Below the pieces are notes generated by a model. The model saw only the letters and a program-made list of their open reading frames with translations. It was not told the origin of the DNA and ran no database searches. Made by a program: the position numbers and the translations under genes. DNA of 41,896 bases from a virus (Duplodnaviria > Heunggongvirae > Uroviricota > Caudoviricetes), in the IMG/VR virus record IMGVR_UViG_2512047041_000010; one strand, written 5' to 3'. Every line of letters begins with the position of its first letter. The first letter of the stretch is position 1. Shown in pieces: positions 1 through 41,896 of this stretch.

Positions 1-516
1 ATGAAATTTAAAAAATGTCTTCTGCCTGTGGCAATGTTAGCGTCATTCACTCTGGCAGGATGCCAGTCAAATGCTGATGATCATGCCGCCGATGTTTATC
101 AAACCGATCAACTGAATACCAAACAAGAAACTAAAACCGTTAATATTATTTCCATTCTTCCCGCAAAAGTTGCCGTAGACAACTCCCAAAATAAACGAAA
201 CGCACAAGCCTTCGGCGCGCTTATTGGTGCAGTCGCTGGCGGTGTAATCGGCCACAATGTGGGGTCTGGCAGCAATTCCGGAACGACGGCAGGTGCAGTT
301 GGCGGCGGAGCTGTTGGCGCGGCAGCGGGTTCTATGGTGAATGATAAAACCTTAGTGGAAGGTGTTTCTCTAACGTATAAGGAAGGCACCAAAGTGTATA
401 CCTCCACCCAGGTGGGTAAAGAGTGCCAGTTTACGACAGGTTTAGCCGTTGTTATTACCACGACGTATAACGAAACGCGTATTCAGCCAAATACCAAATG
501 TCCTGAAAAGAGCTAA
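1..516 (+). CDS. putative lipoprotein with glycine-zipper segment (SlyB/Pcp-like)
   Basis: Complete ORF starting at window base 1; signal peptide ending in lipobox LAGC; Gly/Ala-rich stretch GALIGAVAGGVIGH typical of glycine-zipper lipoproteins. May be host or phage cargo. Confidence 0.6.
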   Translation: MKFKKCLLPVAMLASFTLAGCQSNADDHAADVYQTDQLNTKQETKTVNIISILPAKVAVDNSQNKRNAQAFGALIGAVAGGVIGHNVGSGSNSGTTAGAVGGGAVGAAAGSMVNDKTLVEGVSLTYKEGTKVYTSTQVGKECQFTTGLAVVITTTYNETRIQPNTKCPEKS

Positions 517-952
517 TGATCAGGAGGAGTCATGAAGAAAGTTTTTCTTTGCGCCATCTTAGCCTCCTTAAGCTATCCGGCTATCGCCTCATCATTGCAG
601 GATCAACTCTCTGCTGTCGCAGAAGCGGAACAGCAAGGTAAAAATGAAGAGCAAAGGCAGCATGACGAATGGGTCGCGGAGCGCAACAGGGAAATCCAGC
701 AAGAGAAGCAACGTCGCGCAAACGCCCAGGCCGCCGCTAACAAAAGAGCGGCAACGGCAGCGGTAAATAAGAAAGCTCGTCAGGATAAACTGGACGCCGA
801 AGCCTCTGCGGATAAAAAACGCGATCAAAGTTATGAAGATGAGCTACGCAGCTTAGAGATTCAGAAACAAAAACTGGCGCTGGCGAAAGAAGAAGCCCTG
901 AACCGCCCCGGGAATCCTGGAGACTAAACTTCCTGAGAAAGAGGTAAACAGG

Positions 953-1279
953 ATGACTAAAAATACTCGTTTTTCCCCCGAAGTCCGTCAACGGGCAGTC
1001 CGTATGGTTCTGGAAAGTCAGGGCGAATATGACTCACAATGGGCGACAATTTGTTCCATTGCCCCAAAGATTGGCTGTACACCGGAGACTCTGCGTGTCT
1101 GGGTACGCCAGCATGAGCGGGATACCGGAGGCGGTGATGGCGGGCTCACCACCGCTGAACGTCAGCGTCTGAAAGAGCTGGAACGTGAAAATCGTGAACT
1201 GCGCCGCAGTAACGATATCCTTCGCCAGGCTTCCGCTTATTTTGCGAAGGCGGAGTTCGACCGCCTCTGGAAAAAGTGA
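953..1279 (+). CDS. IS3-family transposase OrfA (HTH/leucine-zipper part)
   Basis: 108-aa ORF beginning [19 protein letters not shown], typical IS3-family OrfA; overlaps orfB start (ATGATG/TGA overlap at 1276..1279). Confidence 0.85.
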
Positions 1280-2166
1280 TGCCACTGCTGGATAAGCTGC
1301 GTAAGCTGTACGGGGTCGGACCGGTATGCAGTGAACTACATATTGCCCCGTCAACGTATTACCACTGTCAGCAACAGCGACATCATCCTGATAAACGCAG
1401 TGCCCGTGCGCAGCGCGATGACTGGCTGAAGAAAGAGATACTGCGCGTATACGATGGGAATCATCAGGTATACGGTGTGCGTAAAGTCTGGCGTCAGTTG
1501 TTACGGGAAGGAATCAGGGTAGCCAGATGTACAGTGGCGCGCCTCATGGCGGTTATGGGACTTGCCGGTGTTCTCCGGGGTAAAAAGGTCCGCACTACCG
1601 TCAGCCGGAAAGCCGTTGCCGCAGGCGACCGCGTAAACCGTCAGTTTGTGGCAGAACGTCCTGACCAGTTGTGGGTGGCTGATTTTACTTACGTCAGCAC
1701 ATGGCAGGGGGTCGTCTATGTGGCGTTCATCATTGATGTGTTTGCCGGATACATCGTGGGGTGGCGGGTCTCATCGTCTATGGAAACGACATTCGTGCTG
1801 GATGCTCTGGAGCAGGCGTTATGGGCCCGTCGACCGTCCGGCACAGTCCATCACAGTGATAAAGGTTCTCAGTATGTATCGCTGGCCTACACACAGCGGC
1901 TTAAGGAAGCCGGATTACTGGCATCAACAGGAAGTACTGGTGACTCGTATGACAACGCGATGGCGGAGAGCATCAATGGCCTTTACAAAGCGGAGGTAAT
2001 ACACCGTAAGAGCTGGAAAAACCGTGCAGAAGTGGAACTGGCCACACTCACGTGGGTGGACTGGTATAACAATCGACGATTGCTGGAAAGGCTGGGCCAT
2101 ACTCCTCCGGCAGAAGCAGAAAAAGCTTATTATGCTTCCATCGGAAACGATGATCTGGCAGCCTGA
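1276..2166 (+). CDS. IS3-family transposase OrfB (DDE integrase core)
   Basis: 296-aa ORF with DDE-type transposase features (WVADFTYV ... HSDKGSQY ... DNAMAES); recognised as IS629-like OrfB. Confidence 0.85.
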
Positions 2167-2429
2167 GTTCACAGATAAAACACTCTCCAGGAAACCCGGG
2201 GCGGTTCAGCCCGCGTTAAGCGAGAAAACGAATTTATCGATCAGGAACTGAAGCACAAAGCTGCGCAAACCGATGTGGTGCAATCTGAAGCTGACGCAAA
2301 CAGAAATATGACTGAAGGCGGTCGCGATCTGATGAAAAGCGTGGGCAAAGCAGAAGAGAACAAATCGGACAGCTGGTTTAATTAATCGATGTAAGTAACT
2401 TCAAGCCTATAATTCTTGAAGATAAAAAA

Positions 2430-2456: not shown

Positions 2457-2604
2457 CATTCATAGTGCAGGGATCAAAATCATTCCCACTCAATTATTTA
2501 CGATAACCATAACCAATTGAGTGATAACATTTTTCCAAATCTCAATTTTTCCCGTACCGTTTTATATACCGTCACCGGAAATCAGTACCATGAAAAATGC
2601 CATG

Positions 2605-3087
2605 CTATCTGGTCAAAGTGTCGTACTGTTTTTCGCAGACTCTTCCGGCTTCGGCTGCCCGGTCAGCATACTCTGCCAGTTGTCTGTTTCTCTCGAGAGA
2701 TTTGCTGAGCACGTCGGCAAGCAAAACTCCGGTGTCTGCGGCTGACGACCCAGCGCCGACAATGGCGTTATACTGCCTGAGCTGCTCACGGATGGCAAAG
2801 AGTTGTTGCTGCAACCGGCCAGCGCTAGCGGCAGCATCAAGAGCATCATTGCGCGCCTGGTCGATCCTCTGCTGAGCTTCACGTTCATTGGTCACTTTCT
2901 CCTGTTCGTAGTACTGACGAACTTTGTCTTCTTCGGCTTTGCGGTCTTCTTCCGCCTGAGCATACCCGGCATCGTACTGGCGACTGCCGTGTATATTCCA
3001 GGCAACCACTCCTGATATGACCAGAACAGCAAGCACTGCCACGATAAGAAACTGTTTCCAGTATGCTTTTACGAATGCCCAGATCAT
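2605..3087 (-). CDS. Rz-like i-spanin (inner-membrane spanin)
   Basis: 160-aa ORF with N-terminal TM segment ([18 protein letters not shown]) and coiled-coil periplasmic part; start overlaps endolysin stop; last gene of the lysis cassette. Confidence 0.7.
2613..2849 (-). CDS. Rz1-like o-spanin lipoprotein embedded in the +1 frame of Rz
   Basis: Out-of-frame ORF wholly inside Rz; signal peptide [13 protein letters not shown] with lipobox, Pro/Ser-rich mature part. Start codon choice (2849) is an inference. Confidence 0.5.
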   Translation of the reverse strand: MMLLMLPLALAGCSNNSLPSVSSSGSITPLSALGRQPQTPEFCLPTCSANLSRETDNWQSMLTGQPKPEESAKNSTTL

Positions 3088-3713
3088 ACCGCCAGCACCT
3101 TACTGGCAGTGATGTACCGCGCTCGCCGGTCGTCGATGCCGTTCAGGCCACCATTGATAATCAGAGTTACACGTGCAATATCGCCGGTATACTTCATGCA
3201 TCCTTTGCTGGCGAAGAACCACGCCGCGCTACGAGCCGCATATCCGTCCTGCGCCAGCAGTTCAGGGCTCTCCAGCAGGTCAACCTTCAGACCGTTTCCG
3301 CAATCACGATAGTTATTCAAACCGGTAATCTGGATAAGTCCGCGCCCTCGGTAATTCCAGCCATCACCAGGGGCATTGTTCCCCATGCGTTTGCTGTATA
3401 CCAGATTTGCGATCGCGCGCTGGCGCTCAAGTGGCAATGGTGGTTCACCAGCACGGCGCCCCAGTGCATTAGCCTGCCCCTGAGTGAGACGCCCAGCCCG
3501 AACGAAGTTAGCCAGTCCGCTGACACTGTAGTTGAAATTCTCCTGCAACCTGGTGAAGCCCCCAGACTCATGCCCGACTTGAGCAATAAACATTGCCTGA
3601 TCTTCTGCTTTGCTGATACCAAACTCTTTCATCGCAGAAGTTATATGCGAGAACCAGCGTGCGGCCAGTGCCTCGCTGATACCAGCAGCTCGCTGGAATT
3701 GTTTAATCTCCAT
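3084..3713 (-). CDS. endolysin, glycoside hydrolase family 19 (chitinase-like lysozyme)
   Basis: Motifs [12 protein letters not shown] and [13 protein letters not shown] typical of GH19 phage endolysins; start taken at internal ATG (MEIKQFQ), which overlaps the upstream holin-like gene by 11 nt. Confidence 0.8.
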
Positions 3714-4011
3714 GTTTAGACCTCGATACTTTAAAAATTTGAACGACGTTACCGCGCGTTTTAATAACCGCAGCCAGCATGACAGCGTTGATAATGACCT
3801 CAGATAAATCCACAGCCATTGGCGTACGTAACCAGATTGCATAGGCGACTCGAACAGGAATACTGGCCGCAGCAACAATCAGGAAATAAGCAAGCCATCC
3901 TCCCCACCTTCGATGTTGAGAGCCGTTACGCCGGAATGTGACAACGCGAATTGCTATGCCAGTGCAAATAACTGCATTGGTGATAAGCAAAAAAAACTCA
4001 TGCGTTACCAT
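3703..4011 (-). CDS. holin-like small membrane protein (second lysis membrane protein)
   Basis: 102-aa ORF with hydrophobic segments, between the holin and endolysin with short overlaps on both sides. Confidence 0.5.
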
Positions 4012-4402
4012 CGTCTTTTCTCCCCGGAATTAACTCGCGTGGATTATCGGAACGGTGATAGAGCCATATACCAATACGCACAGCGACAATTGCTGACACG
4101 AATGCGCCTGCAGAGAAAACAATCCCTTTTTCAAAAGAGTCCTGCGTGATGGTAGGGATCAGGCTGGCTATGCCGATAAGAATTGATGCTGCTGGTTTGT
4201 AAAAGAGAAGGCCGCAAAGAAAGCTGAGCATCGACAGGAGCACCCGGCGACGGATGGGGTACTCTACTGCAGAAGTAACAAAAATTACCGCCCCAGCCAA
4301 AGCCCCTAAAGCAACCTCCGGAGGGGCACCTGCAATAACCGCAGCAAGAGAACTAAAACTAAGCAACTGATTTAATTGCTCACTTGTTACTTGAGCAGAC
4401 AT
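3998..4402 (-). CDS. putative holin
   Basis: 134-aa ORF with several predicted TM segments and a charged C-terminus; SD AGGAGA upstream; first gene of the lysis cassette. Confidence 0.55.
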   Translation of the reverse strand: MSAQVTSEQLNQLLSFSSLAAVIAGAPPEVALGALAGAVIFVTSAVEYPIRRRVLLSMLSFLCGLLFYKPAASILIGIASLIPTITQDSFEKGIVFSAGAFVSAIVAVRIGIWLYHRSDNPRELIPGRKDDGNA

Positions 4403-4708: not shown

Positions 4709-7700
4709 TTAACGTTCTTCCAGAGACTGAATCCGCTCTTTTATCTTATCCATTTCTCTGCGCTGCCATGCTGCCTCGATATAGAATAAGAGATCAGGTC
4801 TGACCCCCCATCTAGATCCTGCTGGCGTTATTTCAACGCGCTCAATGATGTCTTCCATTACCATCACTGGATTATCATCCTCATCAACAATGATGCTCCC
4901 GTCATTATCAGTCAGCGGCATTTCCCTTTGGCCAGTAATGACGTCATCATATACTGCGGGATAATCGTCATAGCAAAGAAAGGCATAGCGGCATGTTGTG
5001 CTTTCTTCTTCCATGAGTCCGTGAGAAATAAGAACATCACGAAGTTGCTGCGCGATTACACCATGATGTATCCTCGCCCCTTCTTCCCCCTTTATAGCGA
5101 CAGCGTTCAGCCATTTATAAGCGATATACCTGACGTCACCCCAGGCATCCAGCAATGCTTCGTCAGGAGAGACCGGCTCTGTCTTTAATGTTCCGTCACT
5201 GGTAACCACAGGATTGGAGCCAAGATAAACTGTCGAGAACCTGTTTCCCGGACCACCAAGAGCATTTACATTATCAAGATAAGGTTTAACATCTCCGTTC
5301 TCAAAAAGATGTTCGAGTGCGTTATATACCGCGCGACGTGGAGTACTGCTTCCGGAACCATGCAACGTTATCATTGCACCATCTGCTGAAGACGTTGTTT
5401 CACCGCCGCTAACGATTAATCTCTGAGCGGTAACATCATCAGACGGTACTTTCTTCGCAATAATGGCGTAATTACCCTCAAGTTTGACTTCCGCGCGAAC
5501 TTGTCCTGATGTACCTGCATGGACAGTCAGTGACTGGACGGCAACATCATCTGTGAAATCAACGGGTACAGGAACCGTCCTCACGCCTGACGTCGACATA
5601 AAAGTAGGAAGCGTTCTGTTAGGAGTGGCTCCGTAGACAAAATCCCTTGAAACAAATTCTTCCTGTTTAATTTTCACCCTGAAACAATACAAATCAGCCG
5701 GGTGACCATCGTGAACATAAGGATATTTTCTGTTGTTATCCCCTATGCTCCATGGGTTTAGAAAGTCTTCCCCACCGAAAATGTAGTACAGCCAGTTGTC
5801 TTTGATACAAACTGAACCAACACCAACCGCAGAGTTAACTATTCCGCCCTGATAAATCTGATCAGTAACATTAACCCACTCTACATTATCCAGACTCCAC
5901 TCATTGACGTTAACTCTGGTCATAAATGTTCTTGGATAATTTCCTGCATAACGGTTATCAGGCTCTCCTCCTTCCCACTCACCAAATGCGCGCTCACTGC
6001 CAAAAATAACCAGCTCATCGCCAACTTTGGCAAAAGGAAGGTTTGAGTGATGAACATTATTTGGGAAGCGAAGAGAATTCCATGATGTACCTAAATCAGA
6101 GCTTCTGTGCAATGAACTACCGGGTTGAGTACTTAATGTCCCCCTGGTCGTCAGATACAGAATGCCATCATAATATTTTACACATGGCTCAGATGCATTC
6201 GCCTCATATTCTGCAGGTATGCGTCTGCGAACAAAGCTACCAGGAGAACCGAAAGCATCAGAGAAATAGAGTATCCCAAGCTCGCGTGGACCAATATCAC
6301 CATTATGGTAGCCAACAGCAAAACTGTTATCGCTAATCGTCGCAAAACTGTGAATCTCAGTAACAGGAGTGCTTCCGTCAACAAAAGAAGGAATAGTTCC
6401 AAGACTGGTTTTTCTCCATGGTGACGAGTGAAATGATGTGCCAAAACTCCAGTATCTACCCTCGTTATTCTGATCCACATCCTGGGTATTTTGCGTCGTA
6501 ACTGTAAAGGTATTTTTATCAATAACAGTAGTCACCGTCATATTCCCGGTAACACCTGTAACACCAGAGTTTGAGAAGTTGACAAAATCACCAGCAAATA
6601 ATCCGTGATCAGTAATGCGAATATAAGCGACTTGCTGATTTGCTGCTTTCGTTATACCACCATAAACGCGAAGGCTGCGACTCATTGGGCGATCCCACAA
6701 CTCTGCAACCTGCAGTTTATTTCCGCTCACGGTCCGCGTCTCAATTACAGCAAAAAGGCGATTTCTGACAACCCCCATACTCATGCAGTGATAGTTAACT
6801 GTGGGATAGTTTTCATGTAAATCTGTAAGCCATTCCGGCGTTGTCCAGGTCTTCCCGTCATCTCCTGAGCGAACCCATGCAACATGGAGGTTATTTACAC
6901 CATGGCGGTCTCCAGCCATAAAAGGCGCATAGATGACATTGTCATATACAAACGTTTTATCCTGCGTCCAGGCGTTGTACCACGGTGTATCTGTAATTTT
7001 AAATAACTCTCCCTGGATAAAATCTTCAGAAGCATAAAAAAGAGGCTGGCCCGGTATTCTCTCAAATAAAAAACGAGCATTTTTAAATCGACTGACATCC
7101 GGAAGAGTTGATACTTTAAAAGTAAGCCCTAATCCGTCAATTTTATAACCTGGAGATGAGGCTTCAAGGCACGCGCTTATTGCAGTGGAATCGTCATTTA
7201 TACCATCACCAACAGCTCCAAAATCTTTGGGGCTAATAGCATCACGCATTTTATCCTGGAACGTTCGGTACACAGCCCCAGAACCATACTGAATAAACCA
7301 ACCAAAACCACCAACAACCCCGGCGATTGCAGCATCGACATAATTACGCATTGAGCGATTATTTACAGCGTCCTGCTCAAATGATGGATCTGCAAGGTTA
7401 GAAATTTTGTTTTGCTTTGCATCGTAATATTTTGCAAGCAAAGATGGTTTCATCAATGCACGTCTGAACCACCCAAAACATTGCTGGATCAGCATCGTCA
7501 GGTAGTCAAAGGCATCTTCATGCACTTCGGGGAAAAATTTTCCCTGATTGCGAAGGTCTGTCTCCTGCACTACATCAAGCACACGATCTATCGTAATTCG
7601 CCATCCAGTAGCAAGCGGAGACGGAAGAACCACAGAACCGCCACTATAAGTGCCCGCCCCAGTTACCGTATAACCGGTATCCAGAACCAATTCTGTTACG

Positions 7701-7931: not shown

Positions 7932-7948
7932 ATTACCTTTCAGGTAAT
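7932..7948. promoter_or_regulatory. operator-like 17-bp palindrome ATTACCTTTCAGGTAAT
   Basis: Perfect inverted repeat of the ATTACC-N5-GGTAAT family, upstream of the LexA box and the small antirepressor-like gene; same core as the site at 27053. Confidence 0.55.
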
Positions 7949-7984
7949 TTGCAAAACGTGCTGGATAGCAAACAAATTATTTGC

Positions 7985-8004
7985 TACTGTATAAATATAC
8001 AGTT
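7985..8004. promoter_or_regulatory. LexA (SOS) box TACTGTATAAATATACAGTT overlapping a putative promoter
   Basis: CTGT-N8-ACAG with an AT-rich spacer, 18/20 match to the E. coli consensus TACTGTATATATATACAGTA; lies 20 bp upstream of the ATG at 8024 and contains a TATAAAT -10-like element. Confidence 0.75.
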
Positions 8005-10086: not shown

Positions 10087-10090
10087 TAGA

Positions 10091-31980: not shown

Positions 31981-31981
31981 A

Positions 31982-33631: not shown

Positions 33632-34432
33632 TTACTTGATAAATCCTGCCGCCTTTCCCCGCCTGTATTCCTCCATCAGCCACTGCGCCGGTGTTATTCC
33701 CCCAAGGGTGGCGGCGTTAGGCATGCACCCGAAACTTCGCCCTGGTGGATGGTAAACGTCTCTCCCTGTGTCCGGAGGTGTACTCATGGGCTCTCGCTTT
33801 GCCTGTATGCTGATCACCGGATCGGGTATCTGCTGTCCGGAAGCTACCTTTTTCGCCCAATCATCGAGCAGCCTGCGCGCGTGTTTCTCAACCTCAATCT
33901 CGCTAAGCTGGCGCTGATACATTGCACGGCGGGTATCACATACGACCCAGTACATAACCGGATGTCGCCACGGGAATCTTTCGGGACCACCAGGATATAA
34001 ACTTTTTTCCTTGCTGTACCGGTGAAACTCCGCCATCACATCGTCAATGGTGACGCCAAGAACCATCTTGCTGTCTTTACACCACTTGATGAATTGCCCT
34101 GGCGACGGCCAGAACGGAGACTCACTGGCGCGGGCGTGGCGCATACCAGCAGAAACCTGTTCACGGGTTCGGATCCCCCCTTCGGCAAACGCAGCAATCC
34201 ACTGCTGTTTTGCAGCAACTTCCTGCTCTGGCGTCTTCAGGTTGGTTACCACTGCCGCCGGAAACAGTTGTTTCAGCTGTTTGAAAAGGGCATCAACAAG
34301 CCTCTCTGCTGACATGTTCACCACGTTGTCATTGTTGGTGTACTGATGCTCATAACCTGACATGCGAGAAAGGGCTTCTCCGTCACGGTTTTGTATCGCG
34401 GTAAAAACGTTGTTCACAAGAAATCCTCCCAT
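33632..34432 (-). CDS. replication protein P-like (helicase loader)
   Basis: Block FPAAVVTNLKTPEQEVAAKQQWIAAFAEGGIRTREQVSAGMRHARASESPFWPSPGQFIKWC aligns by eye with lambda P (FPASLANRDQNEVNEIRRQWVLAFRENGITTMEQVNAGMRVARRQNRPFLPSPGQFVAWC). Confidence 0.8.
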   Translation of the reverse strand: MGGFLVNNVFTAIQNRDGEALSRMSGYEHQYTNNDNVVNMSAERLVDALFKQLKQLFPAAVVTNLKTPEQEVAAKQQWIAAFAEGGIRTREQVSAGMRHARASESPFWPSPGQFIKWCKDSKMVLGVTIDDVMAEFHRYSKEKSLYPGGPERFPWRHPVMYWVVCDTRRAMYQRQLSEIEVEKHARRLLDDWAKKVASGQQIPDPVISIQAKREPMSTPPDTGRDVYHPPGRSFGCMPNAATLGGITPAQWLMEEYRRGKAAGFIK

Positions 34433-35229
34433 GCTTCAGGGCTGTTCCAGTGTGGAACGTTGTTATCAGGTAATGTTGATTGCTTCTGTCTGCTAATCTG
34501 CAGCCTCCTTGCCAGCTTCTGCTCCCACTGTGCCTGATGGTATGCCTTACCCTCAGCCATCCAGTAAATTCTGAACTCTGCAAGTTCCTGTGCCGTTGGC
34601 AGACTGTCCAGGTAGATCCCCTGCAATGAGCTTTTCCGAAGAAAGTCATCTGATGGTTGCCATTGTTCATGCATGACAAATTTGCCTAATTGCCCTGGCC
34701 CACCAGGAGGAACAAAGTTATTCATCACGGCGTTGTTTGCGCCGGGGTCATGAGACACAGAATCCCCGTTTTTTGTCCTGCTCTCCCTCTCTTGGTTAAA
34801 TGACTGGTTATATGACTGGTTCTGGATCCCGTTTTTGGGATCATTCAACATCCCGTTTTTGGGATCATTCAACATCCCGTTTTTGGGTATATTCCCGTTT
34901 TCGGTAACATTACCGTTTTCGGGTTCATTACCCCCTTCCCGGTTGCCTTTAATGTTCCCGTTTTTGGTTATATTAAGAGAGAAAACCCGCACTCTTTTCG
35001 TCGCTCCCTTTCTCTCTCCGGTATCTGAAATAAGCCCCATTTTCATGAGCGATATAAGTCCGGCCTGCACGGTTTTTTTATTCAGGCAAGTGTCTTTAAC
35101 GAGGCGTTCTATGCTGGGGTAGCAGAGGTTATATTCATCGGCTCTGTCAGCCATCGAGAGCAGTATGAGCTTTAATGACGAGCTACCTGGATCTGTCTCC
35201 CAGGCCCAATCTGTTGCATGTCTGCTCAT
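34414..35229 (-). CDS. replication initiator O-like protein (contains the origin iterons)
   Basis: SD GGAG upstream; winged-helix-like N-terminus; central Asn/Gly-rich repeats encoded by the iteron array; translationally coupled to the P-like gene. Confidence 0.6.
   Translation of the reverse strand: MSRHATDWAWETDPGSSSLKLILLSMADRADEYNLCYPSIERLVKDTCLNKKTVQAGLISLMKMGLISDTGERKGATKRVRVFSLNITKNGNIKGNREGGNEPENGNVTENGNIPKNGMLNDPKNGMLNDPKNGIQNQSYNQSFNQERESRTKNGDSVSHDPGANNAVMNNFVPPGGPGQLGKFVMHEQWQPSDDFLRKSSLQGIYLDSLPTAQELAEFRIYWMAEGKAYHQAQWEQKLARRLQISRQKQSTLPDNNVPHWNSPEAWEDFL
34760..34975. repeat. origin-like iteron array inside the O-like gene
   Basis: Six to seven copies of TCCCGTTTTTGGGA-type repeats (two identical 24-mers ATCCCGTTTTTGGGATCATTCAAC at 34826 and 34850) plus direct repeat TGACTGGTT x2; arrangement like ori-lambda iterons within O. 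Confidence 0.65.
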
Positions 35230-35595: not shown

Positions 35596-35826
35596 TCATG
35601 AGTAGAAGAAGTATGCCAGTTCTGCTTTTGAGCGCAGCCATTGTCTTGTTTTACAGGCTTTAAAAAGCCCATTCATCAATACTTTACCTGGCATTTTGCG
35701 CTTACCTGTTAAGTGAGTCTGGATATAGTGACTCGTCGTTCCGGCTTCCTGTGCGAAGGCTTCACGCTCATCCGGAGTAAGTGCAAGCCAGTGCTTTTTG
35801 AAATCGAAATGTCCGTTATCGCTCAT
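35596..35826 (-). CDS. Cro-like repressor (YdaS/DUF1019-type HTH)
   Basis: 76-aa HTH protein divergent from the repressor gene across a three-operator region; first gene of the replication-side early operon. Confidence 0.6.
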   Translation of the reverse strand: MSDNGHFDFKKHWLALTPDEREAFAQEAGTTSHYIQTHLTGKRKMPGKVLMNGLFKACKTRQWLRSKAELAYFFYS

Positions 35827-35860: not shown

Positions 35861-35926
35861 ATTCACCCATAAGGTAACAAAAATCAAGGATAGTTACCTA
35901 TGAGGTGCATTTACCTGTTGGGTAAT
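35861..35926. promoter_or_regulatory. OR-like region: three adjacent operator sites (ATTCACCCATAAGGTAAC, TTACCTATGAGGTGC, TTTACCTGTTGGGTAAT) with divergent promoters
   Basis: Three TTACC-N5-GGTAA-type palindromes (one perfect, two degenerate) between divergent HTH genes; minus-strand promoter-like -35 TTGTTA / -10 TATTAT overlaps the leftmost site. Confidence 0.6.
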
Positions 35927-35980: not shown

Positions 35981-36565
35981 ATGAAAAGTATCCAGGACGT
36001 CCGCAGGCAAAATCTCAACGACTTGATCGACCGTGAATTCAATGGTGTTCAGACGCGGATGGCAGAAAAACTTGGAACTCAGGCAAATCTGGTAAACCGC
36101 TGGGCTCTTGGCAAGAAGGTTATCGGCGACCAGGTTGCGCGAAAAATTGAAGCTGCCGCCAATAAACCACGTAACTGGCTTGATATCGATCGCTCGCTTT
36201 CTCAGGAAGGTTTTCAGCCTGTCGGCCCAAGCGACATTGGTCAGCTGGCGGCTCACAACCTGGAACGCTGGATGAGCGAAAGCCGCGACCTTTCAACACA
36301 GGGAAAACTTCACCGCGCATCCGGCGTCGCCCAGGTGACAATCAGCCGCCTGTTAAACAATGAGGTCAGCGTTTCCATTTCCACCCTGGAGAATGTTGCA
36401 TCCGCATTCGGGCGTCACGGCTATGAATTACTGATTCACCCGCACGACCCTGCGACCATCAACTATGACCGCTCGCGCTACGCATTGTTACCCGAAACCG
36501 AGAAAGCAAAGATCGAAAGTTACATTGAATTTGTCATCAACCAGAACGAAAAAAGCAAAAAATAA
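35981..36565 (+). CDS. CI-like prophage repressor, double-HTH type without LexA-like autocleavage domain
   Basis: 194 aa with two Cro/C1-type HTH segments (QTRMAEKLGTQANLVNRW and GKLHRASGVAQVTISRLL); no Ala-Gly/Ser-Lys peptidase S24 signature; flanked by operator clusters on both sides; own terminator downstream. Confidence 0.6.
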   Translation: MKSIQDVRRQNLNDLIDREFNGVQTRMAEKLGTQANLVNRWALGKKVIGDQVARKIEAAANKPRNWLDIDRSLSQEGFQPVGPSDIGQLAAHNLERWMSESRDLSTQGKLHRASGVAQVTISRLLNNEVSVSISTLENVASAFGRHGYELLIHPHDPATINYDRSRYALLPETEKAKIESYIEFVINQNEKSKK

Positions 36566-36873: not shown

Positions 36874-37173
36874 ATGAACGTTAATCAGCAGAAAAATCTT
36901 CAAAAAATCATGCTGGCATTCGACAAGGACTACCGCCTGTCAGAACAGCTATATGACCGACAAGTTGAACTGATTGAGAGCATCCGACTTCATCAACTGT
37001 CCTCAACTTTCGACGTTGTAACAGGCAAAGGCGTTCGTCAGGAAGTGCTGGAGGCTGCTAAAGACAGCCCTGAGTTCGAAGAACTGATGGATGCCTACCG
37101 GCGCGAGGCAATGGCAATTATAGCGCGCTGGGATCTGGCGGATCAGCTTGATGGGCAGAGGGACGCGGCATGA
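36874..37173 (+). CDS. hypothetical early protein (99 aa)
   Basis: SD GGGAGGG; stop overlaps the exonuclease start (ATGATG). Confidence 0.5.
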   Translation: MNVNQQKNLQKIMLAFDKDYRLSEQLYDRQVELIESIRLHQLSSTFDVVTGKGVRQEVLEAAKDSPEFEELMDAYRREAMAIIARWDLADQLDGQRDAA

Positions 37174-38069
37174 TGCGGAACGCTGGAATCATGGATAGAA
37201 CAAAATACATCGGAGGAAGCGATGTTGCAGGGATTCTTGGAATTAGCCCATGGCGCACCCCGCTTGAGGTTTATCTGGATAAGGTCCAGCCACGTGTCAA
37301 ACCAGTAGACCCAAGCAAGCAGAAAGTTTTCACGCGTGGCCAGCGTATGGAGCCATACGTAATAGACCTGCTTTCTGAGGAAACAGGGATGGAAATCGTT
37401 CATCGCGGAAACCGCTATATCCACCGTGATTACGATTTTATTGCAGCTGAGATCGATGCAGAAGCAGCGTCAGGCGAGAACATTGAGATCAAAACAGTTA
37501 GTCCGTTCAAAGCCAAAGAATGGGGAGAAATCCAGACAGATGCAATTCCTGTGCATTACACGGCCCAGGCCATGCACGGGTTGATGGTTACAAACAAACA
37601 GGTATGCGTTTTCGGTGTGCTTATCGGTGGCGACGACTTCCGAATCTATCGGGTTGAGCGTGATGAAGAAACTATCCAGGCGATCTTAGAAAAAGAAATC
37701 GCTTTCTGGGACCGAGTGAAAAATCTTAACCCGCCGGAAGCTACCAGCGTAAGCGATGTATCGCTGATGTTTGAGAAAGATGCCGGGACAAGTATCGAGG
37801 CTGACGGAAAGGCACTCGCACTATTCAACGATCTACGAGACATGAAATCACGCAGAAAATCACTGGAAGAAGAAATAGCTATATCAGAAGAGAAGCTGAA
37901 GATGTACATGCAAGAGCACTCAGTCCTGACCCTGGACGGAAAGCCGCTCTGCACATGGAAATCTCAGATCAGCAACAGATTCGACCAGAAGCTATTCCAG
38001 TCAGTACACCCTGAGTTATTCGAAAAATTCAAAACAACAACGACACAACGCGTCTTCAGAATGAAGTAA
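37170..38069 (+). CDS. YqaJ-type phage exonuclease (recombination exonuclease)
   Basis: N-terminal RTKYIGGSDVAGILGISPWRTPLEVY is the YqaJ/lambda-Exo-like viral recombinase signature; immediately followed by recT. Confidence 0.75.
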   Translation: MMRNAGIMDRTKYIGGSDVAGILGISPWRTPLEVYLDKVQPRVKPVDPSKQKVFTRGQRMEPYVIDLLSEETGMEIVHRGNRYIHRDYDFIAAEIDAEAASGENIEIKTVSPFKAKEWGEIQTDAIPVHYTAQAMHGLMVTNKQVCVFGVLIGGDDFRIYRVERDEETIQAILEKEIAFWDRVKNLNPPEATSVSDVSLMFEKDAGTSIEADGKALALFNDLRDMKSRRKSLEEEIAISEEKLKMYMQEHSVLTLDGKPLCTWKSQISNRFDQKLFQSVHPELFEKFKTTTTQRVFRMK

Positions 38070-38078
38070 GGAGAAAAA

Positions 38079-39101
38079 ATGTCTATCAATGCACTTAAGG
38101 CAGCGGCTACCGGTAACCAAGTTGCACATCATAATGAGAAACCAACAACTCTGGCCGGACTTCTGGCAGACCCAAAAATTAAAGCTCAGATGGCTTTGGC
38201 ACTTCCAAAGCACATGACAGCAGACCGTCTGGCGCGCATAGCAACCACAGAGATCAGAAAGGTTCCAAAACTTGCATCATGCGACCAAGCCAGCTTCCTG
38301 GGGGCAATTATGCAATGTGCCCAATTGGGTCTTGAACCAGGCGGAGCTCTTGGACACGCTTACCTGATACCGTTCGACAAACGCCAGAAAGTAAATGGAA
38401 GATGGGAAACCGTATCTACAGAAGCACAGCTGATTATCGGCTATCGCGGAATGATTGACCTTGCCCGCCGCTCTGGGCAGATCCTGAGTATCTCGGCTCG
38501 TACCGTACATACAAACGACAAATTCAGCTACTCATACGGCCTGGAAGAAACGCTCGAGCATTTACCTTGCGAAACAGGTGACCGCGGAGAATTAACGCAC
38601 GTTTACGCCGTTGCACGACTGAAAGATGGCGGAGTCCAATTTGAAGTTATGAGCCGGGCAGACGTTGAGAAAGTTCGTGCACTGAGCAAAGCCGGTAGCA
38701 GTGGCCCATGGGTTGATCACTTCGATGAGATGGCTAAAAAAACAGTAATTCGCCGACTGTTCAAATATCTTCCTGTTTCTATTGAAATGCAGAAGGCTGT
38801 TGTTATGGATGAGCGCGCTGAAGCTGGACTTAGCCAAGATAACGCAGCTGTTATCACTGGTGAATATTCCGTAGTTGACGATGAGCGTCAACACCTGTCG
38901 CCAATTTCAGATTCAGAACGAGAAGAAGCTCGAGAATATATCATCGCGATACTTAATAGCCTGGATCCATCTGCTGAAGATGCAAAAACGATGTTCAAGC
39001 GCGCTGAAAATGAAATTAACACCATGGCTGAAAAGCTCGGTGATGAATATCACCAAAAATTCATGATGACGCTTAACGATATGCGTCCAGAATTCGAGTA
39101 A
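38079..39101 (+). CDS. recT: RecT single-strand annealing protein
   Basis: 340-aa ORF with SD AAGGAG; RecT-family blocks (GLEPGGALGHAYLIPF, QLIIGYRGMIDLARRSG). Confidence 0.8.
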   Translation: MSINALKAAATGNQVAHHNEKPTTLAGLLADPKIKAQMALALPKHMTADRLARIATTEIRKVPKLASCDQASFLGAIMQCAQLGLEPGGALGHAYLIPFDKRQKVNGRWETVSTEAQLIIGYRGMIDLARRSGQILSISARTVHTNDKFSYSYGLEETLEHLPCETGDRGELTHVYAVARLKDGGVQFEVMSRADVEKVRALSKAGSSGPWVDHFDEMAKKTVIRRLFKYLPVSIEMQKAVVMDERAEAGLSQDNAAVITGEYSVVDDERQHLSPISDSEREEAREYIIAILNSLDPSAEDAKTMFKRAENEINTMAEKLGDEYHQKFMMTLNDMRPEFE

Positions 39102-39150: not shown

Positions 39151-39399
39151 ATGAAAGGTGCATTAGGTAAGAAAGAACTCCTGGCGGTGGTGCCACTGTC
39201 ATGGAGCACTATCGACCGTATGGAGCGCGCAGGGGAATTTCCTAAACGCTGGTATATCACCGATAAACGCTGCGCATGGAACCGTGATGAAGTTGAGCGT
39301 TGGCTTGATGAACGTCAGGCAGCAAGCCCGGCAGAGTTCCAGGGTAAAAAGCCTCCTGTTCAGCAACGTGTATATCGTCCTGTGAGCAACGCGGCATGA
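39151..39399 (+). CDS. AlpA-family transcriptional regulator / excisionase-like protein
   Basis: 82-aa ORF; LLAVVPLSWSTIDRMERAGEFPKR matches the AlpA/Xis-type HTH. Confidence 0.65.
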   Translation: MKGALGKKELLAVVPLSWSTIDRMERAGEFPKRWYITDKRCAWNRDEVERWLDERQAASPAEFQGKKPPVQQRVYRPVSNAA

Positions 39400-39508
39400 G
39401 TGTGCTGCTAAGGCACTGGAGCAAATGGTCAGGATGGTACTTATTCCTGGCCTCTGTTTCAGCATGGCTTTATCTGCTGGCATTAATTTTCAGAGAGGGT
39501 TGGATTAA

Positions 39509-39808
39509 GTGAGAAAGTTAAGCCGACTTGAAAAATATCACATGAACAAGGTTTCAATGCGCAGCCCTTCAAAGGTTGTTGCCGTTACTCCTGCGGCGAT
39601 AGAGATCGAAAAACGCGCGATTGAAAGAGAGAAAAAAGGGCAGTTCCGCATTGCCGCCCACCTTTGGCTTCAGTGTATGGATGTTGCTTCTGGTGATGTT
39701 GAACGTGCAAGGATCGCGGTTCGCAGGGACCAATGTATCACAAAAGGTAACGGCCTTCGCCGTGGCGACTATAGCGGCATAGGATGTTGTGGGGTGGTTT
39801 ATGACTAA
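39509..39808 (+). CDS. hypothetical protein
   Basis: 99-aa ORF, possibly GTG-initiated; start uncertain (alternative ATG at 39542). Confidence 0.35.
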   Translation: MRKLSRLEKYHMNKVSMRSPSKVVAVTPAAIEIEKRAIEREKKGQFRIAAHLWLQCMDVASGDVERARIAVRRDQCITKGNGLRRGDYSGIGCCGVVYD

Positions 39809-40451
39809 GAAATACACACTAATCTATGCAGATCCACCCTGGGTATACCGGGACAAAGCCGCAGATGGTAATCGCGGTGCCGGTTTTAAATATCCGGTTA
39901 TGAGTGTGCTGGATATCTGCCGCCTTCCTGTGTGGGATTTGGCCGATGAAAACTGTCTGTTGGCGATGTGGTGGGTGCCAACACAACCACTCGAAGCACT
40001 AAAAGTTGTTGAAGCCTGGGGATTCCGTCTGATGACGATGAAGGGCTTCACGTGGATAAAATGTGGTAGTCGACAACCAGATAAACTGGTTATGGGTATG
40101 GGACACATGACTCGCGCCAATAGTGAAGATTGCCTGTTTGCGGTAAAGGGAAAACTACCTACGCGCATTAATGCAGGGATCGTTCAGTCATTTACCGCAC
40201 CGCGGCTTGAGCATTCAAGAAAGCCAGATATCGTTCGTGAAAAACTTGTGCAATTATTAGGCGATGTTTCTCGCATTGAACTGTTCGCCCGCCAGACGTC
40301 TCATGGCTTCGATGTTTGGGGTAATCAGTGCGAAGACCCGGCAGTGCAACTACACCCTGGATACGCGTTGGATATTGGCGGATTAACAAATGCATTCAGC
40401 AATGCTCCGCTGTCACCAACAGACAACCAGGGGCGGGAGCGTGCTGCATGA
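39801..40451 (+). CDS. MT-A70 family DNA N6-adenine methyltransferase
   Basis: Motif LIYADPPWVY (DPPW catalytic motif) near the N-terminus; SD GGGGTGG. Confidence 0.8.
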   Translation: MTKKYTLIYADPPWVYRDKAADGNRGAGFKYPVMSVLDICRLPVWDLADENCLLAMWWVPTQPLEALKVVEAWGFRLMTMKGFTWIKCGSRQPDKLVMGMGHMTRANSEDCLFAVKGKLPTRINAGIVQSFTAPRLEHSRKPDIVREKLVQLLGDVSRIELFARQTSHGFDVWGNQCEDPAVQLHPGYALDIGGLTNAFSNAPLSPTDNQGRERAA

Positions 40452-40642
40452 ACAGGGCATCACCAGCAGATTTAAGAAAATGCCTTGAAACTGCAAACAT
40501 GCTTGCACACAGCGGGATCAGGTTTGTTCCAATTCCCGCTGTCACTGATGCTGAATTTGCAACACTGTCAGCAATATTCGAAAACAAAATTGAATCACTG
40601 GCAGCAGAAGCAGAGATGGAAGAAAATCAGCAGAACTATTAA
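40448..40642 (+). CDS. small hypothetical protein (64 aa)
   Basis: ATG overlaps the methyltransferase stop (ATGA); convergent with the integrase gene. Confidence 0.4.
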   Translation: MNRASPADLRKCLETANMLAHSGIRFVPIPAVTDAEFATLSAIFENKIESLAAEAEMEENQQNY

Positions 40643-40645
40643 ACG

Positions 40646-41896
40646 TTATTCCCCCGCCATCCACTTCTCAAACTTCGACGGGGAGAACGGAATCAGATCC
40701 GTATGCTCCCCGTCAATCCATGAATCAATCATATCGGCCCACTGCTGCAACATGTAGGCGCGCTGTCTGGCGTATTCCGCTTTGTTATATACGGCGCGCA
40801 CACCTTTCTGCTCATGTGCCAGAGCCTTTTCAATCCAGTCTGAAGGATAACCAGCCTCATGCAACAACGTACTGGCTGTACGGCGCATATCATGTACAGT
40901 GAAGTCCTGAATATGCTCACCATCTTCATTTATTATTTTCACCGTTCTGTCGATCAGAGAGTTCAGCGCGGCATTAGATAATGGCTTCCGGAAATTGTAA
41001 CGACCAGGAACCAGATATTCACTTCCACCAGCGCACATCTGCAACCCGACCAATATATCCTGTGCCTGTTTAGGCAGGTAAATAACGTGCGCCCGGCTTC
41101 CCTTCATGCGGTCTGGAGGAATTGTCCATGTCCATTTTTTAAAATCTATTTCATCCCACGTTGCATTGGTGAATTCGCCCTTACGAACCATAGTGATAAG
41201 CACCAGTTTTAAAGCCATTTTCATAGTGCCCATAGCACCAATGGCATCCAGCGTGCGGAAGAACAGGCCAATTTCTTCTGGTGTCAGTGTTCGCTCTCGT
41301 GGTTTAAATATGGCGATAGACGAAGGTTTAATGTCAGCCGCAGGATTAAACAAACCATGACCACGGTCATTGGCGTGACGGTATACGCTACTGATGATCT
41401 CCCTGGCCTGCACTGCTGTTGCCCGGCCACCGCGTTCGACAATCCGGTCACACAAATCACGAACCATCGATGTGGTAATTTCAGCCATCATTTTATTGCC
41501 AAGAACCGGAAGTATGTCACGGTCGATCACCGCCTGTTTCATTGCGCGGGTACTGTCAGCCAGGATGACGTGTTTCATATAACTGTCGGTATGTACCGCA
41601 AACGTCTCGGCACCACGAATCTTTTTGATACCGTCACGTTTAGCCGCAGCCGGTGACTGGCCTGCTTTAAGCAGCTTCTTTGCAGCAATCAGTTCTTCTC
41701 GCGCTTCTGCCAGGCTGATACCGTCACGCCCATACTGCCCGATTACCAGTGTTTCGCGGCGACCGTTGATACGGTAGTCATAGCGAAACGAGACCGTGCC
41801 TGACGTAAGCACAGCTACATACAGCCCGTCACGATCGGAGACCTTGTACAGTTTGTCCTGCGGCTTGAGGTTTTTTAATTTTGTATCGGTAAGCAC
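40646..41896 (-). CDS. int: tyrosine site-specific integrase (P4-type, N-terminal arm-binding domain), 5' end truncated by the window edge
   Basis: N-terminus LTDTKLKNLKPQDKLYKVSDRDGLYVAV is the DUF4102-type integrase arm domain; C-terminal catalytic region with HDMRRT...LAH...Y motifs; ORF runs to the last base of the window. Confidence 0.85.
   Translation of the reverse strand: MLTDTKLKNLKPQDKLYKVSDRDGLYVAVLTSGTVSFRYDYRINGRRETLVIGQYGRDGISLAEAREELIAAKKLLKAGQSPAAAKRDGIKKIRGAETFAVHTDSYMKHVILADSTRAMKQAVIDRDILPVLGNKMMAEITTSMVRDLCDRIVERGGRATAVQAREIISSVYRHANDRGHGLFNPAADIKPSSIAIFKPRERTLTPEEIGLFFRTLDAIGAMGTMKMALKLVLITMVRKGEFTNATWDEIDFKKWTWTIPPDRMKGSRAHVIYLPKQAQDILVGLQMCAGGSEYLVPGRYNFRKPLSNAALNSLIDRTVKIINEDGEHIQDFTVHDMRRTASTLLHEAGYPSDWIEKALAHEQKGVRAVYNKAEYARQRAYMLQQWADMIDSWIDGEHTDLIPFSPSKFEKWMAGE

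Follow-up and report, generated by a model that had tools for sequence, protein, structure and literature searches.

Boundaries and gene content of the prophage

The 41,896-nucleotide stretch of DNA analysed here (the window) carries a phage genome together with flanking bacterial chromosome (Table 1). An earlier note on this DNA had treated the phage element as spanning the whole window. Most of the genes that it listed were confirmed, but bases 1–2477 proved to be host yfgH and yfgI with an insertion sequence (IS), and the phage part starts only at the att core. Window positions 1–898 and 2208–2700 are collinear with the uninterrupted yfgH-yfgI-attR region of strain E5. The IS, which we take to resemble IS629, has the terminal inverted repeats TGAACCGCCCCGGG and a target duplication of ~4 bp (GCCC). 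A second att copy lies ~190 bp past the window end, adjoining guaA, and the two copies in strain E5 are spaced 39,355 bp apart. The same core has been published for phiV10, epsilon15, and ZX5 (PMC9782041).

Table 1. Features of the window, with the evidence for each assignment.
Feature	Position	Strand	Evidence
Host gene yfgH (not phage)	1–516	+	Alignment to yfgH of E. coli IHE3034 and E5
Host gene yfgI, split by the IS	532–2385	+	Comparison with strain E5
IS3-family insertion sequence, 1310 bp	899–2208	+	Pfam HTH_Tnp_1, rve/HTH_21
IS orfA; orfB	953–1279; 1276–2166		
att core ATTGAGTGGGAATGATT, prophage/host junction at lysis-gene side	2478–2494	-	One exact match
Rz-like inner-membrane spanin (DUF2514)	2605–3087	-	Pfam; phiV10 annotation
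Embedded outer-membrane lipoprotein spanin	2613–2888	-	Lipobox LAGC
GH19 endolysin	3084–3713	-	Pfam Glyco_hydro_19, 34.9 bits (cutoff 25.5)
Two holin-family membrane proteins	3703–4011; 3998–4402	-	Pfam Phage_holin_3_7, Phage_holin_8
Tailspike	4709–7828	-	Pfam End_N_terminal, End_beta_propel, End_beta_barrel, End_tail_spike, Peptidase_S74
Antirepressor operon control region	7933–8004		Rep-type operator TTACCTTTCAGGTAA (7933–7947); perfect LexA box TACTGTATAAATATACAGTT (7985–8004)
Small protein, epsilon15 gp19/phiV10 p24 homolog	8025–8281	+	PHROG 450; 93–99% identity to phiV10/ZX5
Bro-N antirepressor (Ant)	8582–9307	+	Pfam Bro-N
Variable accessory genes	9454–10086; 10113–10346; 10378–10794; 10806–10994	+; +; -; -	PHROG matches without functional label
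824-aa virion protein	10978–13452	-	PHROG 684
Large ejection/internal proteins, 600 aa; 837 aa	13458–15260; 15257–17770	-	PHROG 1145 and 992 for the pair
T7 gp14-family internal virion protein, 179 aa	17783–18322	-	Pfam PF24072, E 8.4e-8
Internal virion protein at T7 gp13 position, 154 aa	18322–18786	-	PHROG 308 'internal virion protein'; synteny; PMC4819975
Tail nozzle (tubular protein B), 823 aa	18786–21257	-	Carin-1 'Tail Nozzle' 8ck1_A, 1.3e-217
Tail adaptor (tubular protein A), 201 aa	21257–21862	-	AlphaFold (AF2) model, pLDDT 86
gp10-like staple protein	21862–22191	-	Pfam Gp10-like, 1.2e-51
114-aa protein among capsid accessory genes	22236–22580	-	
Bbp16-type cement protein	22582–23019	-	Pfam Bbp16, 5.4e-47
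Major capsid protein, epsilon15 gp7/BPP-1 type	23071–24063	-	Pfam PF20911, 1.1e-149
233-aa protein, database label 'peptidase/protease'	24072–24773	-	PHROG 458 'protease'
Bbp19-family small protein	24770–25066	-	Pfam PF25181
Portal protein, T7 gp8 family	25063–26742	-	Pfam PF12236, 3.2e-187; 8ck0_A, 1.2e-178
tRNA-Arg (anticodon TCT)	27391–27467	+	ARAGORN
Terminase large; small subunit	28174–29649; 29646–30320	-	PHROG 2; Pfam Terminase_2
Regulator and nin/ea-type block (NinX, DUF551, Ead/Ea22, 176-aa protein, DUF1064)	30361–33469	-	
epsilon15 gp49-like regulator	30361–30699	-	
lambda-P-family replication protein (helicase loader)	33632–34432	-	Pfam Phage_lambda_P, 1.5e-56
Replication initiator	34414–35229	-	HTH_36 and DnaT domains
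Cro-like small regulator	35596–35826	-	PHROG 35 'transcriptional repressor', 5.6e-13; divergent from repressor gene
Three predicted operators between cro-like gene and rep	35863–35925		TTACCT-N3-RGGTAA
Prophage repressor, SPC32H Rep type	35981–36565	+	5d50_A, 3.4e-42 over residues 1–190; Pfam HTH_3 only
YqaJ-type exonuclease	37170–38069	+	Pfam
RecT annealing protein	38079–39101	+	Pfam
AlpA-type regulator/putative excisionase, PerC-family activator, MT-A70 adenine methyltransferase, DUF1382 protein	39151–40642	+	Pfam; epsilon15 and phiV10 annotation
P4-type tyrosine integrase	40646–41896	-	Pfam Arm-DNA-bind_3, Phage_int_M, Phage_integrase

The integrase had been called P4-type, and both its three-domain Pfam set and its 28% identity to P4 Int (409 aa, E 9e-40) bear this out. 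It would be expected to recombine the 17-bp core common to the guaA 3' end. The lysis genes likewise include the GH19 endolysin (100% identical to that of ZX5) and the spanins that had been named, as well as two holins; lysis would proceed through holins, endolysin, and a two-component spanin. The accessory genes at 9454–10994 had no PADLOC match, and ZX5, phiV10, and epsilon15 all lack the 210-aa accessory protein. The annotations of O157 typing phages 9/10 and of E. coli E5 include the tRNA-Arg gene as well.

A prophage of this kind could be a degraded or cryptic remnant rather than a functional phage. The IS is only 270 bp from the phage end, one att copy is absent from the window, and several ea/nin-type ORFs are unlike their counterparts in isolated phages. 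However, the IS lies on the host side of the att core, within yfgI, and every gene for the virion, lysis, replication, immunity, or integration is full length, with core proteins 94–100% identical to those of isolated, plaque-forming phages. The att core and the integrase start are 39.4 kb apart, which also agrees with the 39.1–39.9 kb genomes of isolated relatives. We consider a remnant very unlikely, and read the element as an apparently intact prophage.

The virion module and its relationship to T7

The order portal-scaffold-capsid-adaptor-nozzle-internal proteins parallels T7 genes 8–16, and the virion module had been described as T7-like. Taken literally, this could mean that the element is a recent hybrid in which a lambdoid phage backbone carries a virion module of T7-like (Autographiviridae) type, a new chimera that needs new taxonomic placement. 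Two proteins do belong to T7 Pfam families: T7 gp8 falls in PF12236, as does the window portal, and T7 gp14 matches PF24072, for which the window protein scores 32.8 bits (cutoff 27). The latter protein is only 63–67% identical to its counterparts in ZX5, phiV10, and epsilon15. The adaptor model, when searched with Foldseek, matched the Carin-1 connector (3.6e-16), LME-1 (1e-8), and T7 gp11 (7box_M; 1.9e-6, TM 0.57–0.59), and the adaptor is thus predicted to have the T7 gp11 fold. The nozzle did not match Pfam Phage_nozzle, nor did the 154-aa protein match Phage_T7_Gp13; a strong HMM-HMM match has been published between the epsilon15 gp12 and T7 gp12 groups (PMC4819975). The 837-aa ejection protein contains a lysozyme/transglycosylase-like domain (residues 249–398), and the 600-aa/837-aa pair matched PDB entries 9vvp_L (3.9e-38) and endolysin 7q47_A (2.7e-17). 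The 824-aa protein is 99% identical to phiV10 p20 and 28% identical to epsilon15 gp17; its counterparts epsilon15 gp17 and BcepC6B gp17 have been equated with T7 gp16 (IVP-D) (PMC4819975).

Against a recent hybrid, no window protein showed pairwise similarity to any T7 protein. Of the nine T7 virion/terminase proteins with a Pfam family, only two, the portal and gp14, share it with their window counterpart, while the capsid, scaffold, adaptor, nozzle, gp13-position protein, and terminase do not match the T7 families. The closest PDB match to the capsid is Bordetella phage BPP-1 (3j4u, 6.7e-129), followed by Carin-1 (8cjz, 8.6e-88) and epsilon15 (3j40, 1.4e-85). The terminase, judged by its families, is not of the T7 type; for the epsilon15 terminase, a match to Sf6 gp2 is given in that phage's record. 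Published work found the epsilon15 tail and internal proteins, including the nozzle by HMM-HMM comparison, to be related to those of T7, grouped its capsid and terminase with siphoviruses, and indicates that the T7 relationship is ancient (PMC4819975). The T7-like description thus stands at no more than the family or fold level, and just for the portal, adaptor, nozzle, and ejection proteins, not for the capsid (BPP-1/epsilon15-type) or the terminase. Clustering of structural proteins with siphovirus or myovirus families had been proposed as evidence against a T7-like module; for the head and packaging genes of epsilon15 this is partly the case (PMC4819975).

The 233-aa protein upstream of the capsid gene had no match in Pfam, NCBIfam, or PDB. 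It has a pI of 4.7, an N-terminus of ~80 aa rich in Pro/Asp/Lys, and a low-confidence, all-helical model (pLDDT 49); it is more likely a scaffolding protein than a protease. The tailspike combines an N-terminal Uetakevirus particle-binding anchor (~170 aa) with a K1 polysialic-acid endosialidase and a C-terminal intramolecular chaperone. It is 100% identical to the ZX5 protein, whereas phiV10 and epsilon15 match only its first 16% (68–72%), and its gene is 99.4% identical to CUS-3 siaK1 in nucleotide sequence over 4738–7130. In the assembled virion, an HK97-fold capsid of the BPP-1/epsilon15 type, together with its cement and staple proteins, would be built on a T7-gp8-family portal. To this would be attached a T7-gp11-fold adaptor, the nozzle, the K1 endosialidase tailspike, and five internal/ejection proteins, of which one has a cell-wall hydrolase domain.

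The absence of a phage RNA polymerase was also confirmed: the best tblastn E value for T7 RNA polymerase was 0.64, and every window ORF of at least 300 aa is otherwise assigned. Transcription would require the host RNA polymerase.

Replication, recombination, and immunity

The early region had been called lambdoid, with O/P-like replication. A hybrid origin might draw on the lambda P family protein and on the nin/ea-type block, which shares short, 90–100% identical DNA patches with Stx-converting, HK97, P22-like, and D6 phages. The P protein and the iterons (~8 copies of the core CCCGTTTTTGGG at 34765–34975, inside the initiator gene) agree with the earlier description, but the initiator does not: a lambda O assignment was rejected on its HTH_36 and DnaT domains. 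We suggest that the initiator binds the iterons within its own gene and that the P-type protein recruits host DnaB. No N- or Q-type antiterminator family was matched in Pfam among the 50 gene products scanned, and the Rep/Ant switch described below is a further departure from the lambdoid label. The exonuclease/RecT pair was correctly recognized; it is the epsilon15 allele (91–93% aa identity), with no match in ZX5 or phiV10.

The immunity region has repressor and cro-like genes with operators, as had been noted; the genes are divergent, the repressor is an HTH protein, and the operators are palindromic. The repressor is not of the CI type: Pfam places no S24 peptidase domain in it, i.e. no CI-like self-cleavage domain. 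The motif TTACCT-N3-RGGTAA gave 32 strand-matches against 3.1 expected. Further copies lie at 36623 and 36685, on either side of a promoter-like site found by promoter scan, and at 35526, 33518, 33580, 27054, 9380, 8313, and 7933. phiV10 has the same motif at syntenic sites, and the annotation of epsilon15 includes repressor sites at dispersed positions. The C-terminal residues 160–236 of Ant match the SPC32H anti-repressor chain 5d50_E (E 3e-13), and the gp19/p24 homolog is the product of the gene that directly follows the LexA box. By protein homology, the immunity system is of the SPC32H Rep/antirepressor type.

From this homology and the sequence motifs, we infer a regulatory model. In the lysogen, the two-domain HTH repressor would bind operators at the divergent rep/cro promoters, one leftward promoter, and several other transcription units. 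Induction would most likely act via LexA, whose box guards the operon encoding the Bro-N antirepressor; this protein would then bind and disable the repressor. Antirepressors under SOS/LexA control, among them the one from podovirus SPC32H, have been reviewed (PMC7380047).

Comparison with known phages

The earlier suggestion to compare the window with epsilon15/phiV10-like temperate podophages was exactly right. In a megablast of window 10000–33000, ZX5, HEMP4, phiv142-3, O157 typing phages 9/10, and PAS61 were 97.6–98.5% identical over 84–86%, and phiV10 over 80%; identity of the structural half to vB_EcoP_ZX5, HEMP4, phiv142-3, and phiV10 was 97–98.5%. Both arms of the window also gave matches, and the relatives' records give Uetakevirus in their taxonomy lines. 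Annotated prophages between yfgI and guaA have a gene order identical to that of the window, and 280 of 5426 complete E. coli genomes contain 80% or more of the structural half. By our own estimate, whole-genome similarity is 82.5% to ZX5, 75.3% to phiV10, 40.2% to epsilon15, and 0.1% to T7. The value for epsilon15, the genus type, falls short of the rule-of-thumb genus threshold of 70%, so the assignment to the genus depends on phiV10 and ZX5. We are confident that window 2478–41896 is an apparently intact prophage of the genus Uetakevirus (phiV10/epsilon15-like) located between yfgI and guaA in an E. coli chromosome. The carrier is probably a K1-capsulated strain; ZX5, a Uetakevirus with a K1 host, uses guaA as its integration site and shares the endosialidase tailspike (PMC9782041).

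The megablast, the T7 protein comparison, and the similarity estimates in practice refute a recent T7-lambdoid hybrid, which we regard as extremely improbable: the entire arrangement is common to the long-known epsilon15, phiV10, and ZX5 at 75–98% identity. The combination had been thought worth placing taxonomically, but since it is the published Uetakevirus architecture, no new placement is needed. The apparent mosaic is the ancestral architecture of the genus with ordinary within-genus module swapping, and phages of the phiV10/epsilon15 group have already been described as joining a T7-related tail to lambda-style early genes and a P4-type integrase.

Genus placement and novelty

An earlier note had read the window as a mosaic of a T7-like virion module, a lambdoid early region and a P4-type integrase, and had proposed epsilon15/phiV10-like temperate podophages for comparison. 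We found that the window belongs among precisely these phages; the gene content had been observed largely correctly, but phages of this kind are already known. In a megablast search of a phage collection, the structural half (window 10000-33000) matched Escherichia phage vB_EcoP_ZX5 (ZX5), HEMP4, phiv142-3, O157 typing phages 9 and 10 and PAS61 at 97.6-98.5% identity over 84-86% of its length, phiV10 at 97.9% over 80%, and Salmonella phage epsilon15 at ~77% over 42%. Both arms of the window point to the same relatives, whose records give the genus as Uetakevirus. To assign a genus, we used a nucleotide intergenomic similarity of ~70% or more to its members. By our own VIRIDIC-style estimate, the overall similarity is 82.5% to ZX5 and 75.3% to phiV10, which places the window in Uetakevirus, 40.2% to epsilon15 and 0.1% to T7; phiV10 and epsilon15 are themselves only 37.8% similar by the same estimate. 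Of 50 window genes compared, 42 had a tblastn match in phiV10, and the order of genes and core proteins is that of the phiV10, epsilon15 and ZX5 records. Podovirus morphology would be expected from the adaptor and nozzle homologies, and also because no window gene product matched a tape-measure, tube or sheath protein by family, profile or structure.

The architecture holds no novelty: it was described when the epsilon15 and phiV10 genomes appeared, and an in-depth analysis of the epsilon15 type is available from Hardies et al. (PMC4819975). The element is at most another recombinant member of a known genus. Its similarity to each of the three isolated relatives measured is below 95%, and we consider it possible, at slightly less than even chances, that it is a species-level new Uetakevirus recombinant (K1 endosialidase, phiV10-type replication, epsilon15-type RecE/RecT) in which the “peptidase/protease” of the databases is really a scaffolding protein. 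At least 80% of the structural half is present in 280 of 5426 complete E. coli genomes (~5%). The discovery value is small; in practical terms, the gain is a clean annotation of a kind of prophage that is common in E. coli.

Boundaries and integration

The mosaic had been drawn over positions 1-41896, which is too wide on the left, where the first two genes, yfgH and yfgI, belong to the host. Base 1 is ruled out as a phage end, being the start codon of yfgH. The insertion sequence that splits yfgI has 14-bp terminal inverted repeats (TGAACCGCCCCGGG) and a target duplication of ~4 bp, and lies 270 bp from the prophage end; we take it to resemble IS629.

All phage homology begins at the att core, ATTGAGTGGGAATGATT. 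Uetakevirus members integrate at the 3' end of guaA through this sequence, and annotated equivalent prophages in E. coli sit between yfgI and guaA. The same 17-bp core has been published for phiV10, epsilon15 and ZX5 (PMC9782041). The guaA-side junction falls beyond the window end: the start codon of the integrase is at the last base of the window, which puts the other att copy and guaA ~190 bp outside. In strain E5, 39355 bp lie between the two att cores. The integrase carries the P4-type set of Pfam domains, Arm-DNA-bind_3 (DUF4102; PF13356), PF22022 and PF00589, and aligns with P4 Int over 409 aa at 28% identity (E 9e-40), which confirms the type first proposed for it.

Coordinates of host, integration, regulatory and virion features in the window
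Feature	Position	Strand	Match or remark
Host yfgH	1-516
Host yfgI, split by insertion sequence	532-2385
IS3-family element, 1310 bp, inside yfgI	899-2208		orfA 953-1279, orfB 1276-2166
att core, 17 bp	2478-2494		single occurrence in window
Tailspike	4709-7828	-
LexA (SOS) box	7985-8004		perfect; TACTGTATAAATATACAGTT
Bro-N antirepressor	8582-9307		C-terminal domain homologous to SPC32H antirepressor (5d50_E, 3.2e-13)
210-aa accessory protein	9454-10086	+	PHROG 1349
837-, 600- and 824-aa proteins	10978-17770	-	PHROGs
179-aa gp14-family protein	17783-18322	-	Pfam PF24072
154-aa internal protein	18322-18786	-	PHROG 308
823-aa nozzle	18786-21257	-	8ck1_A, 1.3e-217
201-aa adaptor	21257-21862	-	fold match to T7 gp11
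Gp10-type staple	21862-22191	-	Pfam Gp10-like, 1.2e-51
114-aa protein	22236-22580	-	PHROG 590, unknown function
Bbp16 cement	22582-23019	-	Pfam Bbp16, 5.4e-47
Major capsid protein	23071-24063	-	Pfam GP7, 1e-149
Acidic 233-aa protein	24072-24773	-	no family match
Bbp19-family protein	24770-25066	-	Pfam PF25181
Portal	25063-26742	-	Pfam PF12236, 3e-187
tRNA-Arg(TCT)	27391-27467	+
139-aa ORF	27664-28083	+	PHROG 4846
Iterons (~8)	34765-34975		core CCCGTTTTTGGG
Repressor	35981-36565		HTH domains only (Pfam)
Exonuclease/RecT	37170-39101	+	epsilon15 allele

The virion module and its relation to T7

A close relationship to T7 is ruled out, since BLASTP, phmmer and tblastn comparisons of the window proteins with those of T7 gave nothing significant. 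For a comparison at the level of families, T7 gp8-gp16 and gp19 were scanned against Pfam. Only the gp8 (PF12236) and gp14 (PF24072) families are common to T7 and the window counterparts; the T7 families of gp9, gp10, gp11, gp12, gp13, the gp16 SLT domain and gp19 are unmatched by those counterparts. At the level of fold, an AlphaFold model of the adaptor (pLDDT 86) matched T7 gp11 (7box_M; E 1.9e-6, probability 1.0, TM 0.57-0.59), along with many other T7-like adaptors. Published work on epsilon15 reports a strong HMM-HMM match between its gp12 and T7 gp12 and treats the gp13/gp14 homologs as standard; gp17 is identified as the T7 gp16 homolog and gp15/gp16 as candidates for gp15, and the terminase and capsid are grouped with those of siphoviruses (Hardies et al., PMC4819975). 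From these family, fold and published profile links, and from the siphovirus-like capsid and terminase, we conclude that the portal-tail-ejection apparatus belongs to an ancient T7-related lineage, while the head shell and packaging enzymes lie outside it. The designation “T7-like virion module” is borne out in part, by the portal and gp14 families, the adaptor fold and the published profile links for gp12 and gp16; against it stand the lack of pairwise similarity and the capsid and terminase, whose families differ.

The absence of a phage RNA polymerase, also reported before, was upheld: T7 RNA polymerase gave a best tblastn E of 0.64 against the window, and no RNA polymerase family appeared in any Pfam scan. 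The element thus lacks the phage-encoded single-subunit polymerase that marks the Autographiviridae, and, unlike the one-strand, strictly lytic members of that family, it uses both strands and has an integrase and a repressor.

Among solved structures, the capsid is closest to that of BPP-1 (3j4u, 6.7e-129), ahead of that of epsilon15 (3j40, 1.4e-85). Its identity to epsilon15 gp7 is only 43%, despite the shared genus. The best matches of the portal, nozzle and connector come from Cobetia phage Carin-1 (8ck0, 8ck1; entry assigned to this phage through Foldseek), and the next-best of the nozzle and connector from Legionella phage LME-1. The 837-aa protein has a lysozyme/transglycosylase-like domain at residues 249-398. 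For the unassigned structural and accessory proteins, NCBIfam and PADLOC scans gave no useful match.

Databases label the 233-aa protein of this phage group, encoded between the portal/Bbp19 and capsid genes, “peptidase” or “protease”. No match was found for it in Pfam, NCBIfam or the PDB, and no protease family or fold supports the label. It has a pI of 4.7, its N-terminal ~80 residues form a Pro/Asp/Lys-rich low-complexity stretch, and its model is all helical at low confidence (pLDDT 49). It has the look of a scaffolding protein: acidic, helical and disordered at the N-terminus. Given these properties and the position of the gene between portal and capsid, we infer that “scaffold”, as the protein had been called in the earlier note, is more plausible than protease, and that the database label may mislead for this probable scaffold.

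The stretch that separates the terminase genes from the portal gene carries, on the other strand, a tRNA-Arg(TCT) gene and the 139-aa ORF, and the 210-aa accessory protein, which has no Pfam or PADLOC match, is encoded in a variable region between the antirepressor and virion genes. Both of these proteins are missing from ZX5, phiV10 and epsilon15.

Early region and immunity

The early region was said to have lambda O/P-like replication with iterons. The replication protein P is indeed of the lambda-P family (Pfam, 1.5e-56), and the gene for the initiator does contain the iterons, two of them perfect 24-bp tandem copies; this initiator, however, has HTH_36 and DnaT domains and does not belong to the lambda O family (Phage_rep_O). 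The recombination genes encode a YqaJ exonuclease and RecT by Pfam, as had been proposed. They are the epsilon15 allele (91-93% aa identity), and neither ZX5 nor phiV10 gave a tblastn match to the pair, both carrying a different RecE/RecT version; this is a clean exchange of modules between members of the genus. The ea/nin-type block (NinX, DUF551, Ead/Ea22, DUF1064) has short, 90-100% identical patches in Stx-converting, HK97, HK629 and P22-like phages, so that DNA segments are shared with lambdoid phages. Among 50 gene products, including all early and regulatory ORFs and, in part, the small unannotated ones, none matched an N or Q antiterminator family in Pfam.

Immunity had been described as Cro/CI-like with operators. 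The divergent repressor/cro arrangement and the multiple operators are there, but the repressor is a full-length homolog of the repressor (Rep) of Salmonella podovirus SPC32H (5d50_A, 3.4e-42) and has no CI-type S24 self-cleavage domain. Its homolog and that of the antirepressor (Ant) are chains of one complex (PDB 5D50). The 15-bp palindrome TTACCT-N3-RGGTAA gave 32 strand-matches in the window against 3.1 expected. Three copies lie at 35863-35925, between the cro-like gene and rep, and those at 36623 and 36685 flank a promoter-like site downstream of rep; further copies are spread over other transcription units, behind cro, behind P, ahead of the portal operon and around the antirepressor gene (7933, 8313, 9380, 27054, 33518, 33580 and 35526). 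These dispersed sites are not a new feature, because equivalent repressor sites are annotated in the epsilon15 RefSeq record and the motif recurs at syntenic positions in phiV10.

The LexA box follows the operator at 7933-7947 and precedes an ORF at 8025-8281, upstream of the Bro-N antirepressor gene. SOS-driven antirepression has been reviewed for Salmonella prophages, SPC32H among them (PMC7380047), and the position of the box fits such a scheme. The motif, the PDB homologies and that review together point to putative LexA control of ant, and suggest that SOS induction would act through the antirepressor rather than through self-cleavage of the repressor. With homologs of Rep and Ant and a LexA box upstream of the ant operon, the predicted switch is of the SPC32H type. 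The database label “CI/Cro-like” may accordingly mislead for what is a Rep/antirepressor switch.

Lysis and tailspike

The lysis genes encode two proteins of holin families, a GH19 endolysin, an Rz-like spanin (DUF2514) and an embedded lipoprotein whose lipobox reads LAGC; the Pfam matches and the lipobox bear out the endolysin and spanins named previously. The tailspike is a chimera of a ~170-aa Uetakevirus N-terminal anchor and a K1 polysialic-acid endosialidase. It resembles the phiV10 and epsilon15 tailspikes over its first ~16% only, the particle-binding anchor, while the endosialidase part shares 99.4% DNA identity with P22-like phage CUS-3. No O-antigen conversion gene follows the tailspike gene, unlike in phiV10 (oac) and epsilon15. 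The element thus carries a K1-capsule depolymerase, an enzyme relevant to the biology and therapeutic use of K1 phages.

Comparison with known systems

With the T7 virion module (genes 8-16), the window has in common the two Pfam families, the adaptor fold and the order portal, scaffold, capsid, adaptor, nozzle, small internal proteins and large ejection proteins. In each, one of the ejection proteins bears a cell-wall hydrolase domain: the first large one (837 aa) in the window and the last, gp16, in T7. The window differs in its extra cement and staple proteins, in five rather than four internal proteins, in a tailspike instead of a fibre, in the families of capsid, scaffold, terminase, nozzle and gp13, and in its temperate lifestyle, polymerase-free genome and use of both strands. 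The epsilon15-like structural homology group of Bordetella BPP-1, Cobetia Carin-1 and Legionella LME-1 gives the best structure matches for capsid (3j4u), portal (8ck0) and nozzle/connector (8ck1, 9efk) and shares the Bbp16 and Bbp19 families; the hosts differ, and the comparison covers the structural genes.

Lambda has the same divergent repressor/cro with multiple operators, an initiator gene that contains iterons and precedes a lambda-P-family gene, a leftward operon with recombination genes, and ea/nin-type genes with shared DNA patches. It differs in its O family and CI S24 domain, in its N and Q antiterminators, families not among the window Pfam hits, in Exo/Beta against the RecE/RecT type, in the R transglycosylase against the GH19 endolysin, and in its integrase type. 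SPC32H is alike in the full-length repressor, the C-terminal domain of Ant and the upstream LexA box; the Ant of the window bears a Bro-N N-terminal domain, unlike that of SPC32H, and its binding and LexA control are predicted.

The closest systems are those of the genus itself. In its founding members, phiV10 (NC_007804) and epsilon15 (NC_004775), gene order and module set are those of the window: terminase, portal, capsid, adaptor, nozzle, internal proteins, tailspike, lysis, att-int, methylase, recombination, rep/cro, replication and ea/nin-type genes, with dispersed repressor sites and a P4-type integrase at guaA. phiV10 carries an O157-specific tailspike and an O-acetyltransferase, and epsilon15 an O-antigen tailspike and serotype-conversion genes, where the window has the K1 endosialidase alone. 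Identity between epsilon15 and the window is only 36-43% for the capsid, cement and staple proteins and 28-32% for the gp16/gp17 counterparts. ZX5 (MW722083; host E. coli O87:H52:K1) differs from the window in its initiator (46% identity; the window has the phiV10 allele) and its gp14-like protein (63%; 63-67% across ZX5, phiV10 and epsilon15), and lacks the two accessory genes. Protein identity between ZX5 and the window is 95-100% for virion, lysis, terminase, immunity and integrase and 100% for the endosialidase tailspike, and the att core and guaA site are the same.
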